Shown here: in pieces, positions 12,685 to 15,224 of the stretch
How positions within the stretch are numbered: the first letter of the stretch is position 1
How the letters are laid out: each line of letters opens with the position of its first letter
Assembly (NCBI GenBank): GCA_028704755.1
Contig: JAQWEU010000002.1
Coordinates: 1 to 64,000 of the forward strand
Origin: Minisyncoccota bacterium
Lineage (GTDB): Bacteria > Patescibacteriota > Minisyncoccia > Minisyncoccales > Minisyncoccaceae
DNA length: 64,000 bases
Direction of reading: 5' to 3'
Notes under the pieces: generated by a model
Seen by the model: only the letters and a program-made list of their open reading frames with translations
Database searches by the model: none
Told to the model about the DNA's origin: nothing
Position numbers and translations under genes: made by a program

Positions 12685-13431
12685 ATGGCCACTCCAGCAC
12701 AAGATTTCATACAAGTACAACAGATCAGGGAAGGATTGATGATCATGAAAGATGGATCGATGAAAGGGGTTCTTGCTGTCTCCTCCTTGAATTTTGCATT
12801 GAAATCAGACGAAGAACAAGAAGCTATAATATATAATTTCCAGAATTTTTTGAATTCTTTAGACTTTACATGCCAGATCCTCGTAACTTCAAGAAAAGTG
12901 AACATTACAGGATATATTGAAAAGATCAAAGGATTAGAAAAGGTTCAACAGAACGAATTATTAAGGATGCAGACAGCCGATTACCGTAAATTCATCGAAG
13001 AATTGGTCACTGGTGGCACCATCATGACGAAGAACTTCTACGTCATCGTTCCGTATTACCCATTAATAGAAGTCGGCATGGCTGGTGAACAGATGAAAGC
13101 AGCCTCAGCCGAAGCGTCTCAAGGGGACTTATTAGGTATGAAGAATACTAAGATAGAAGATCCTAACGATCCTAACAGCGCCCCAAAAACAAACCCTAGT
13201 CTCGCAGATGCGAAGAAGATCAATGCTAAATTGACCGAAAAACAGTTCAAGATAGGAAAATTCCAGCTCAATCAAAGGCTTGAATATGCTATTCTCGGAC
13301 TAAGAAGGTCTGGATTGAAAGCCTTTGCTCTCGACAGCAAAGAACTGATCGAATTGTTATGGTCTTTCTATAACCCTAAGCAATCAGAGTTAGGGTATTA
13401 TCCACAAGTACCACCAGAATTAATCACTTAA
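12685..13431 (+). CDS. VirB4 N-terminal domain encoded as a separate ORF (split VirB4, part 1)
   Basis: 248 aa beginning ...DFIQVQQIREGLMIMKDGSMKGVLAVSSLNFALKSDEEQEAII..., which looks like the N-terminal region of TraC/VirB4-family conjugation ATPases. It stops 11 nt before the ATPase ORF. Confidence 0.5.
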   Translation: MATPAQDFIQVQQIREGLMIMKDGSMKGVLAVSSLNFALKSDEEQEAIIYNFQNFLNSLDFTCQILVTSRKVNITGYIEKIKGLEKVQQNELLRMQTADYRKFIEELVTGGTIMTKNFYVIVPYYPLIEVGMAGEQMKAASAEASQGDLLGMKNTKIEDPNDPNSAPKTNPSLADAKKINAKLTEKQFKIGKFQLNQRLEYAILGLRRSGLKAFALDSKELIELLWSFYNPKQSELGYYPQVPPELIT

Positions 13432-13442
13432 AGTAAATAAAT

Positions 13443-15224
13443 ATGGGCTTATTCGGAGGAAACAAAGTTCAGAAACTATATGACCAGGAGATAATGGACA
13501 TGAAAGACATCATCGCTCCTGCTTCCATAGCTATTGAACAGAATCATGTCAGGCTTGAAGAAAAATATACTAAAGCATATTTTGTTTTTTCATATCCAAG
13601 ATACCTGAATATGGGATGGCTTTCTACTATTATAAACATGGATATTGTCTTCGATCTATCATTCTTCTTCCATCCGATCGATACTAGTACCGTATTGAAG
13701 CAATTACAGAAAAGCGTTACAGAAGTCCAATCGGAAATAATAGAGAAGCAGGAAAAGGGGCTGATCAGGGATCCTATCCTAGAAACTGCCTTCCAAGACC
13801 TTGAAGAATTGAGAGACAAGCTGCAAACAGCTCAGGAGAAGATGTTCAAATTCGCTCTTTATATCAACATATATGCAGAAGACAAGAAATCTCTTGAATT
13901 GATAGAGACTAACCTGAGATCGCTTCTCGAATCAAGGCTTATTTACATAAAACCAGCCTTGTTCCAACAAGAAAAAGCTCTTCATTCCTGTTTTCCTTAC
14001 TGTTCTGACCTTGTCCAGATACACAACACTCTCAATACTGGAGCCCTTTCCAGTCTTTTTCCATTCATCTCTTTCGACCTGAGCTCTAATGACGGTATCC
14101 TTTATGGCATCAATAAGCACAACAGCTCCCTTATCTTATTCGATCGTTTCAGTTTAGAGAACGCTAATATGGTCATCTTTGCCAAATCAGGTTCTGGAAA
14201 ATCATATACGGTCAAATTAGAGATATTAAGATATTTGATGATGGGAACAGAATGTATCATTGTTGATCCAGAGAACGAGTATAAGACCCTTGTCGAAGCA
14301 GTCGGTGGATCTTTTTTTCGTGTCTCTATAAGTTCCGATAGTCATTTGAATCCTTTTGACTTGCCTGAACTGATGGAAGGGGAATCAGCTGAAGACGTCC
14401 TAAGGAACAATGTCATGAACCTCGTAGGTCTTATGCGTATCATGCTTAACGGACTGACTCCTGAAGAAGATGCTATTATGGATAGAGCCCTTACCGAGAC
14501 ATATGCCGCTAAGGATATAACCCCTGAATCAGATCATAAGAAATGGAAAGAGAATATTCCTATCCTCTCAGACCTCGAAGCAGTCTTAGATGGAATGACT
14601 GGAGCAGAGAACATGACAGAGAGATTGAGAAAATTCACTAAAGGGACCTTTTCCTCATTCTTCAACAACAAGACCAATGTCGACATGGGAGCTTCTTTGG
14701 TAGTTTTTGGACTGAGAGATATGGAAGACGAATTACGTCTGATCGCCATGTTCATCGTCATGAGACATATCTGGAATACCGTCAGGACATCCTTTAAGAA
14801 AAGGCTTCTTGTTATTGATGAGGCTTGGTGGATGATGAAAGAGGATAACGGTGCTTCATTCCTTTTCGGAATGTGTAAAAGAGCTCGTAAATATTGGTTA
14901 GGTGTCACGACCATCACTCAAGATGTTTCTGATTTCATGAAATCAGAATATGGAAAACCGATCATCACTAACTCTTCCATCCAATTACTACTGAAACAAA
15001 GTCCTGCTACGATCGACCTCATCCAAGAGACATTCAACCTGACTGATCAGGAAAAATACTTGCTCCTAGAGACTCCCGTAGGGGAGGGCATATTCTTTGC
15101 TGGACAGAAACACGTAGCCATAAGTGTTGTTTCTTCTTATGCTGAACATCAGATAATCACCACGAACCCTGAAGAGATCGCCAAGATAAGGGAGCAGAAA
15201 AAGATGATTGTCCAGAAAGAATAA
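13443..15224 (+). CDS. virB4: VirB4/TrbE/CagE-family type IV secretion ATPase (C-terminal ATPase portion)
   Basis: Walker A FAKSGSGKSYT, Walker B LLVIDEAWWMM (the DEAW signature of VirB4), and a downstream LGVTTITQ motif. 593 aa. Confidence 0.8.
   Translation: MGLFGGNKVQKLYDQEIMDMKDIIAPASIAIEQNHVRLEEKYTKAYFVFSYPRYLNMGWLSTIINMDIVFDLSFFFHPIDTSTVLKQLQKSVTEVQSEIIEKQEKGLIRDPILETAFQDLEELRDKLQTAQEKMFKFALYINIYAEDKKSLELIETNLRSLLESRLIYIKPALFQQEKALHSCFPYCSDLVQIHNTLNTGALSSLFPFISFDLSSNDGILYGINKHNSSLILFDRFSLENANMVIFAKSGSGKSYTVKLEILRYLMMGTECIIVDPENEYKTLVEAVGGSFFRVSISSDSHLNPFDLPELMEGESAEDVLRNNVMNLVGLMRIMLNGLTPEEDAIMDRALTETYAAKDITPESDHKKWKENIPILSDLEAVLDGMTGAENMTERLRKFTKGTFSSFFNNKTNVDMGASLVVFGLRDMEDELRLIAMFIVMRHIWNTVRTSFKKRLLVIDEAWWMMKEDNGASFLFGMCKRARKYWLGVTTITQDVSDFMKSEYGKPIITNSSIQLLLKQSPATIDLIQETFNLTDQEKYLLLETPVGEGIFFAGQKHVAISVVSSYAEHQIITTNPEEIAKIREQKKMIVQKE

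Follow-up and report, generated by a model that had tools for sequence, protein, structure and literature searches.

The window analyzed here (the whole 64,000-nucleotide stretch of DNA) carries a run of plus-strand genes in which prgI, encoding a small membrane protein, is followed by two open reading frames, ORF1 and ORF2 (Table 1). The first-pass annotation had read the pair as VirB4 encoded in two parts, and its coordinates are confirmed: two ORFs of 248 and 593 residues, a TAA stop, a gap of 11 nt, and an ATG belonging to ORF2 itself. The gap between prgI and ORF1 is shorter still (5 nt), and there is no terminator-like site in the spacer or between prgI, ORF1 and ORF2. Strong homologs for each ORF exclude the possibility that either is a chance reading frame. 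The two ORFs lie in different frames (12685 mod 3 = 1 for ORF1; 13443 mod 3 = 0 for ORF2), and the spacer closes both of them, with a TAA at 13434-13436 that shuts the ORF2 frame and a second TAA at 13438-13440 in the frame of ORF1; thus a single nonsense mutation cannot account for the split, and reversion of one stop codon would not join the ORFs.

Table 1. Features of the ORF1-ORF2 locus and its surroundings, in positions of the window
Feature	Coordinates	Strand	Remarks
720-aa polytopic membrane protein	6570..8732	+	at least 6 hydrophobic segments; conserved in relatives L088 and L089
265-aa conserved protein	11448..12245	+	first gene of the prgI-ORF1-ORF2 run; no family match
prgI	12263..12679	+	PrgI-family (VirB3-like) small membrane protein, 138 aa; Pfam PrgI 29.8 bits (cut-off 27)
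ORF1	12685..13431	+	248 aa; ATG start; TAA stop at 13429-13431
Spacer AGTAAATAAAT	13432..13442		11 nt between ORF1 stop and ORF2 start
ORF2	13443..15224	+	593 aa; ATG start
1179-aa protein	15328..18867	+	downstream of ORF2; partly conserved; no family match
151-aa protein	18880..19335	+	ends the run; hairpin downstream
Hairpin	19341-19358		bidirectional, terminator-like; directly past the 151-aa gene
jag (R3H), yidC, rnpA; dnaA	19366..22982	- (jag, yidC, rnpA); + (dnaA)	Pfam R3H, 60KD_IMP, Ribonuclease_P, Bac_DnaA

The window is the replication-origin region of a Paceibacterota chromosome: the cumulative GC skew reaches its minimum near 22 kb, and the jag-yidC-rnpA-dnaA synteny is repeated in four relatives (L003, L088, L089 and L090). 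The surroundings of the two ORFs are likewise shared. A prgI gene precedes the ORF1 homolog in L001, L003, L088 and L089, and the 265-aa protein is kept upstream of prgI in the same four and in L008, while the position of the 1179-aa gene is occupied in relatives by large proteins of 1013, 1053 and 1209 aa with partial similarity. The PrgI protein of the window has its hydrophobic segments at residues 15-64. The 720-aa protein gave no Pfam or NCBIfam match in local scans; its counterpart in L001 is assigned to PF19590 (TrbL_3) in a precomputed table, and it may tentatively be regarded as a candidate VirB6/TrbL-like channel component. Family-library scans covered the genes of the cluster from 1248 to 22982, and among these no relaxase or coupling protein was seen.

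Judged by its sequence, ORF2 is a VirB4 ATPase without the first ~200 residues. Its match to the CD1110 VirB4 family model (NCBIfam NF045971; 377 bits, E 1.8e-112) passes the curated cut-off of 325 and places residues 15-559 on positions 182-733 of the 752-position model; Pfam matches are to P-loop_TraG (102 bits), AAA_10, DUF87 and CagE_TrbE_VirB. The protein has no transmembrane segment. Its ATPase domain occupies residues ~215-573 (the VirB4 C-terminal domain of PDB 4AG5 matches residues 215-573 with E 8.5e-39), and the nucleotide-binding motifs are intact, with a Walker A motif (AKSGSGKS) at residue 247 and a Walker B motif (LLVIDE) at residue 455. Upstream of the ATPase domain lies the second half of the N-terminal domain (residues ~17-215), which includes the CagE_TrbE_VirB match at residues 36-186. 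Because ORF2 contains this part in addition to the ATPase domain, ORF1 can represent no more than the first half of that N-terminal domain, and the earlier assignment of the whole N-terminal domain to ORF1 and of the ATPase domain alone to ORF2 has to be abandoned. ORF2 also matches the PADLOC model mad8 (E 3.8e-24); a defence-system reading of this match was discarded in favor of shared ATPase ancestry, the PrgI/TrsD-like/VirB4 context pointing to a type IV secretion system (T4SS).

ORF1 is a TrsD-like, or putative 'TraC-like', counterpart of the first ~200 residues of single-chain VirB4, that is, of the first half of its N-terminal domain. It is predicted to be soluble, with no transmembrane segment and with a disordered, lineage-specific insert at residues ~129-180. 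Residues 6-120 correspond to positions 2-117 of the CD1110 model, so that the ORF1 + ORF2 pair spans positions 2 to 733 of a model that neither protein covers by itself. The TrsD/TraD model NF041427 aligns with ORF1 over model positions 21-142 at 24.9 bits (E 1.6e-5) and does not reach its curated cut-off of 200; with an ORF1 profile, hhalign returns TrsD of pSK41 at E 0.0024 and a probability of 12%. ORF1 is on these similarities a distant TrsD relative, below the NCBI threshold for membership. In precomputed tables the family PF26593 ('TraC-like') is assigned to the identical protein P0001 and to nearly all close homologs; the local Pfam-A scan of ORF1 gave no significant family, only TraC_F_IV at E 0.02. 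The fold of ORF1 is that expected of a VirB4 N-terminal domain, its structural model resembling TrwK in Foldseek (E-values 6e-3 or worse); ORF1 sequence searches found no VirB4 among PDB chains, and TrwK was recovered by fold comparison only. Two other PDB hits, a nitrophorin from the single-sequence search (E 0.03) and a TPR protein from the profile search (E 0.008), were dismissed as chance matches. An origin of ORF1 as an internal repeat, i.e. as a duplicate of the N-terminal region of ORF2, was also rejected, as BLASTP gives E 2.1 and ORF2 begins at VirB4 model position 182.

Single-chain counterparts place the two proteins end to end. In a 797-aa protein of Candidatus Colwellbacteria (P0253), which follows the canonical VirB4_CagE model in one stretch (positions 18-725), ORF1 residues 2-235 align with residues 5-213 (E 6e-43) and ORF2 residues 17-587 with residues 227-796 at 53% identity. 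The two ORFs thus map in order and without overlap, as the first-pass annotation had proposed to check. P0253 is found in three assemblies at the same chromosomal locus (prgI-virB4-jag-yidC-rnpA-dnaA), which holds the split form in most Paceibacterota and the fused form in Colwellbacteria. The 942-aa 'PrgI family protein' of Vescimonas pMM35_02, a VirB3-VirB4 fusion, represents the opposite state, with the same order of segments in one protein where the window has three genes: ORF1 aligns to its residues 128-262 and ORF2 to residues 340-925, while the window PrgI gives no significant match (BLASTP E 0.32). These architectures show that the module of VirB3, VirB4 N-terminus and VirB4 ATPase has been fused and split at various places in the course of evolution. 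A structure model of the fused homolog, built from a shallow alignment, has a mean pLDDT of 44.9 and is unusable for contacts between the ORF1 and ORF2 parts.

The layout seen in the window is general among its relatives. Orthologous loci carry two separate ORFs in 79 of 80 species-level relatives, the remaining locus ending at a contig edge, and the split persists in relatives down to 45% ORF1 identity. The best 120 ORF1 homologs are all 154-271 aa long, and 149 of the best 150 family representatives (from clusters at 50%) are unjoined to an ATPase. In the 38 longer representatives (280-449 aa) no BLASTP similarity to ORF2 or PrgI is seen beyond the part that resembles ORF1; these are therefore not fragments of a fused VirB4. 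Each of the 29 aligned ORF1 homologs ends in a GYYPxxPPExI motif followed by the stop codon. The junction itself is variable: gaps in relatives are mostly -4 to +24 nt, with extremes from overlaps to over 100 nt, there is no conserved spacer sequence among them, and in 86 scored loci all three relative frames are used (36, 28 and 22 loci). In the comparison with the closest relative pN is 0.072 for ORF1 and 0.031 for ORF2, with pS at 0.77-0.80. As dS is saturated in all comparisons but one, selection is argued from pN versus pS and not from a dN/dS ratio; these values indicate strong purifying selection on both ORFs.

These observations bear on three explanations that would deny the locus two functional genes. 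A recent nonsense or frameshift mutation that left a pseudogene of a once-single virB4 would be in keeping with the combined length of ~840 aa, which is normal for VirB4, and with the fused form in Colwellbacteria; it is extremely improbable given the different frames and double closure of the junction, the persistence of the split among distant relatives, the strong purifying selection on both ORFs, and the conservation of the ORF1 C-terminus right up to its stop alongside intact Walker motifs. A sequencing or assembly error might be suspected in a contig from a metagenome-assembled genome whose exact ORF1 protein is recorded from one contig only, yet the two-ORF layout, with its stop at one and the same protein position, recurs in assemblies obtained independently in many studies, leaving this suspicion almost no weight. 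Programmed recoding (frameshift, readthrough or bypass) to give one VirB4 chain is suggested by adjacent ORFs with a short spacer, and is scarcely credible where both frames are stopped within that spacer and where relatives differ in spacer length, frame offset and sequence, a variability incompatible with a conserved recoding signal. Conservation of the split, low non-synonymous change at saturated synonymous sites and intact Walker motifs thus lead to rejection of all three. Of the options raised by the first-pass annotation, a genuinely split VirB4 is the one borne out by the 79 split relatives, the purifying selection and the different frames; the same evidence refutes mutation with pseudogenization and technical error.

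The reading we favor, at a probability of about 0.88, is that ORF1 and ORF2 are intact, co-transcribed genes that jointly equal a single VirB4 ATPase in a T4SS of the monoderm type (MPF-FATA-like), encoded chromosomally in a Paceibacterota (CPR/Patescibacteria) bacterium. Homology, co-linearity with single-chain VirB4, retention of the split across relatives, purifying selection and an intact set of catalytic motifs are all observed. The two proteins would then assemble into one complex, with ORF1 binding ORF2 non-covalently to rebuild a complete N-terminal domain, and the very short, often overlapping junctions could couple translation of the genes and keep the subunit amounts matched. In R388, VirB3 wraps around the VirB4 N-terminal domain, through which VirB4 also makes its dimer contacts; ORF1 is accordingly a probable bridge between the ATPase hexamer and PrgI, the VirB3-like membrane protein whose gene immediately precedes its own. 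An improbable alternative makes ORF1 an accessory T4SS protein in its own right, descended from the VirB4 N-terminus and no longer part of the ATPase, which might for example serve other components as adaptor or chaperone. The faster evolution of ORF1 relative to ORF2 would also fit such a looser role; however, the segment missing from ORF2 is exactly what ORF1 supplies, Colwellbacteria carry a naturally fused form at this very locus, and the genes are adjacent with very short junctions in 79 of 80 genomes.

Within the reading of ORF1 and ORF2 as one VirB4, the break point may delimit an autonomous VirB3-docking subunit that folds separately and whose amount or exchange is regulated apart from the ATPase hexamer, for example to serve only the VirB3-bound 'central' VirB4 copies. 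We regard this as speculative, with the odds against it; if true, the locus would serve as a natural experiment on how autonomous the VirB4 domains are, and on membrane anchoring of the essential Patescibacteria T4SS. For annotation, the 248-aa 'hypothetical protein' is to be read as the N-terminal VirB4 subunit, and the 593-aa gene is no truncated pseudogene. In hundreds of species the first ~200 VirB4 residues can evidently make up a polypeptide of their own, which fits an adaptor role towards VirB3/PrgI.

Among known systems, TrwK of R388, A. tumefaciens VirB4 and the CD1110-family VirB4 of Clostridia have the domains of ORF1 + ORF2 in the same order, and the ORF2 ATPase domain aligns to TrwK residues 446-735 and to the C-terminal domain of T. 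pseudethanolicus VirB4. The window differs in having two polypeptides instead of one, with the break inside the N-terminal domain (residues 15-400 in TrwK; PMC9259494) and not between the N- and C-terminal domains. A closer parallel is found on the conjugative plasmids pSK41/pGO1 of Staphylococcus aureus, where trsC (VirB3-like), trsD (227 aa) and trsE (672 aa) follow in the order of prgI, ORF1 and ORF2, and where the trsD-trsE gap in pSK41 is 14 nt compared with 11 nt here. ORF2 residues 10-562 align with TrsE residues 24-617 (E 7e-35) from the very N-terminus, so that both proteins are truncated at the same point, and ORF1 has the TrsD/TraD context: a soluble protein of ~200-250 aa whose gene is flanked by one for a VirB3-like protein and one for a VirB4 with a short N-terminus. 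TraD and TraE of pIP501 form a further pair of the TrsD and TrsE type. Unlike the plasmid-borne TrsD/TrsE, the window system is chromosomal and lies by dnaA. The TraD of the pELF plasmid (PMC13492992) is a VirD4-like protein and was set aside as irrelevant to the comparison.

The two-gene arrangement is already known: it matches TrsD/TrsE and, by the precomputed tables, Pfam 'TraC-like', and it has been described for Patescibacteria (Quinonero-Coronel et al. 2025, PMC12102498), which makes it ordinary here. According to the sections of that report drawn on here, TrsD homologues outnumber every other T4SS component in the neighborhood of virB4 in Patescibacteria (2,272 homologues in all, 1,664 of which lie close to virB4), TrsD is called a remote homologue of the N-terminal portion of VirB4, PrgI/VirB3 and VirB6 homologues occur nearby, and the systems lie near dnaA, rnpA and rpmH. 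The window agrees with this description of an MPF-FATA-like T4SS: its virB4, as in relatives, is accompanied by homologues of TrsD and of PrgI/VirB3, and its cluster sits near jag, yidC, rnpA and dnaA, with the GC-skew turn near 22 kb. The same sections list the TrsD homologue adjoining virB4 in Ca. Southlakia epibionticum as essential and report the T4SS of Patescibacteria to be essential for epibiotic growth, so that for structural and genetic studies it matters which subunits truly make up the system. TrsD is treated in those sections as a separate component, with no statement that the adjacent VirB4 is missing a segment; relative to them, the complementarity of ORF1 and ORF2 and the fused form in Colwellbacteria, both shown here, are what the present analysis adds.

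The first-pass annotation described a VirB4 encoded as two ORFs separated by a stop codon and an 11-nt gap, and its coordinates, stop and spacer all hold: TAA at 13429-13431 closes ORF1 (TrsD-like) and is followed by the spacer AGTAAATAAAT and then by ORF2. The two ORFs lie in different frames; within the spacer a TAA at 13434-13436 shuts the frame of ORF2 upstream of its start, and a second TAA in the frame of ORF1 lies at 13438-13440. A single nonsense substitution therefore cannot explain the layout, nor could frameshifting or readthrough join ORF1 with ORF2.

Features of the VirB4 gene run and its surroundings
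Feature	Position	Strand	Remark
1363-aa protein	2027-6118	-	N-terminal hydrophobic segments
720-aa polytopic membrane protein	upstream of run		counterpart in a relative has TrbL_3 match
526-aa SPFH/Band 7 membrane protein	9280-10860	-	inside T4SS neighbourhood
265-aa protein, function unassigned	11448-12245	+	first gene of run
PrgI/VirB3-like protein	12263-12679	+	directly upstream of ORF1
ORF1	12685..13431	+	248 aa
ORF2	13443..15224	+	593 aa
1179-aa protein, then 151-aa protein	downstream of ORF2	+	last two genes of run
Bidirectional hairpin	19341-19358		terminator-like
jag (R3H), yidC, rnpA, dnaA	19366-22982		immediately downstream of run

Profile matches identify ORF2 as a VirB4-type ATPase. 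With 377 bits it clears the curated threshold (325) of the NCBIfam model 'VirB4-like conjugal transfer ATPase, CD1110 family' while covering only positions 182-733 of 752, matches the Pfam families P-loop_TraG, AAA_10, DUF87 and, at aa 36-186, CagE_TrbE_VirB, and aligns over aa 215-573 with the crystal structure of the Thermoanaerobacter VirB4 C-terminal domain (4AG5; E 8.5e-39). Both Walker motifs are intact, A as AKSGSGKS at aa 247 and B as LLVIDE at aa 455. The PADLOC model mad8 also matches the ATPase domain (E 3.8e-24); this was read as shared ATPase ancestry and not as the mark of a defence-system gene.

VirB4 models match ORF1 at their N-terminal ends (CD1110 positions 2-117, E 3e-6; mycoplasma VirB4 positions 106-233, E 6.8e-10), so that ORF1 and ORF2 correspond to complementary, non-overlapping VirB4 parts. 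ORF1 also matches positions 21-142 of the stand-alone 'TrsD/TraD family conjugative transfer protein' model (E 1.6e-5, far under the model cut-off). A protein identical to ORF1 has already been recorded, labelled hypothetical, for a MAG of a 'Candidatus Pacebacteria bacterium'; the family is named PF26593 'TraC-like' in precomputed Pfam tables, and for many homologs the JGI annotation is 'type IV secretory pathway VirB4 component'. An insert of ~40 aa (aa ~129-180, …EQMKAASAEASQGDLLGMKNTKIEDPNDPNSAPKTNPSL…), predicted to be disordered (pLDDT < 50), is confined to the closest relatives (248-271 aa forms), the ~210-aa majority of homologs lacking it.

When 1.84 billion cluster representatives were searched with a profile and the best 150 matches examined for fusion, one fused relative emerged, the 797-aa VirB4 of Candidatus Colwellbacteria (P0253), present in three assemblies. 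Its aa 5-213 align with ORF1 aa 2-235 (36% identity, E 6e-43) and its aa 227-796 with ORF2 aa 17-587 (53% identity), and it matches the canonical VirB4_CagE model without a break over positions 18-725. ORF1 and ORF2 thus align without overlap to successive parts of a single chain; a 942-aa Vescimonas plasmid protein, with a PrgI-like segment in front, is equally co-linear. The alignment check proposed in the first-pass annotation thus comes out positive. The predicted model of the fused homolog (mean pLDDT 44.9) is too poor for use. The locus of P0253 (L090:544-2937) is that of the window genes, in the order prgI, virB4, small ORF, jag, yidC, rnpA, dnaA, dnaN, where other Paceibacterota have split genes; the single chain could be ancestral or a secondary re-fusion.

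TrwK has its N-terminal domain at residues 15-400 and its C-terminal ATPase domain at residues 400-823 (PMC9259494). Since ORF2 carries the ATPase domain together with the CagE_TrbE_VirB portion of the N-terminal domain, the break falls inside the N-terminal domain, of which ORF1 is roughly the first half. The earlier division into an N-terminal-domain ORF and an ATPase-domain ORF was therefore right as to two VirB4 pieces and imprecise as to their boundary.

The two-ORF layout is conserved. Relatives were found in at least 589 species (one genome per species), and among the 80 best loci, assessed for the split, 79 have a stop ending the ORF1 homolog and a separate ORF2 homolog next; the remaining one runs off the end of its contig, and no fused locus is among them. 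The 120 best ORF1 homologs are all 154-271 aa long, and in an alignment of 29 (down to 56% identity) the motif GYYPxxPPExI is conserved, after which all end at the same position. Over 86 scored loci all three relative frames are used (36/28/22) and junctions range from 4-nt overlaps to >100 nt, mostly 1-9 nt; spacers in five relatives (13, 12, 9, 23 and 4 nt) are unrelated in sequence. Against the closest relative, non-synonymous differences per site are 0.072 for ORF1 and 0.031 for ORF2, with synonymous sites saturated (0.77-0.80), a purifying pattern in both. Taken together, these comparisons reject recent nonsense mutation or pseudogenisation and sequencing or assembly error, both raised in the first-pass annotation, and also programmed recoding to one chain, and they identify the split as genuine, functional and conserved, one of the readings that annotation had offered.

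The genes from 11448 to ORF2 and beyond form a tight run, with gaps of 5 nt (PrgI-ORF1) and 11 nt (ORF1-ORF2) flanking ORF1 and no terminator-like site within it before the hairpin. Together with the minimum of the cumulative GC skew near 22 kb, the genes that follow identify the chromosomal origin region, which the T4SS cluster directly adjoins; relatives share this synteny. No Shine-Dalgarno sequence is recognisable at the starts of the eight plus-strand cluster genes (6570-18880), and all eight leaders are A/T-rich, e.g. AAATAAA(T)ATG. The SPFH/Band 7 gene keeps its place in loci L088 and L089 of other genomes. The 1363-aa protein, likewise conserved there, has a weak, sub-threshold T4SS_pilin match (E 0.07) and could belong to the same system as a surface or pilin-like component.

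Between them, two intact genes encode all VirB4 parts. ORF1 would bind ORF2 non-covalently, completing the N-terminal domain. In R388 this domain is wrapped by VirB3 and is also the VirB4 dimer interface (PMC9259494); PrgI has a TM segment, while ORF1 and ORF2 have none. Given the R388 wrapping and a gene order of prgI, ORF1, ORF2, ORF1 would most likely serve to dock the soluble ATPase onto PrgI, and junctions that are short or overlapping suggest translational coupling. In the main surviving rival ORF1 has turned into an independent accessory protein, in keeping with its faster evolution than ORF2 in every pair compared.

Two CPR genomes have longer ORF2 homologs (L058:1682-5035, 1117 aa; L061:1608-5399, 1263 aa), identified as intein-containing VirB4 ATPases because their Intein_splicing and LAGLIDADG_3 matches (aa 313-781 and 303-927) stop where the P-loop_TraG match starts; the upstream TrsD-like ORF remains separate in both. 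Other TrsD-like proteins (P0174, P0180, P0236, P0263, P0267, L007:3632-4681) carry N-terminal extensions of 90-145 aa, approximately PrgI size, and may be VirB3-TrsD fusions still separate from the ATPase; BLASTP of these against the window PrgI gave no significant match.

The same layout is found in TrsD/TrsE of staphylococcal conjugative plasmids: pSK41 has trsC, trsD (227 aa, annotated 'TrsD/TraD family') and trsE (672 aa), with a 14-nt gap. TrsE aa 24-617 align with ORF2 aa 10-562 (E 7e-35) from the very start of ORF2, indicating the same truncation point, whereas TrsD proper and ORF1 are distant relatives only. Two further plasmids, one from Pontibacillus (274 + 621 aa) and one haloarchaeal (349 + 633 aa), carry split pairs as well; the match of the haloarchaeal 349-aa protein to the mycoplasma VirB4 model begins at position 26. 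The paper of Quinonero-Coronel et al. 2025 (PMC12102498) reports 2,272 TrsD homologues, of which 1,664 lie near virB4, lists one among the essential genes of Ca. Southlakia epibionticum, and places T4SS clusters, most without relaxase, near dnaA, rnpA and rpmH; the origin-proximal cluster here agrees with its description of Patescibacteria. The split arrangement is thus already known, and that paper covers most of the picture in the window. Added here are the explicit demonstration that the adjoining VirB4 lacks exactly the segment the TrsD-like protein supplies, and the identification of the fused form that Colwellbacteria have at the same locus.
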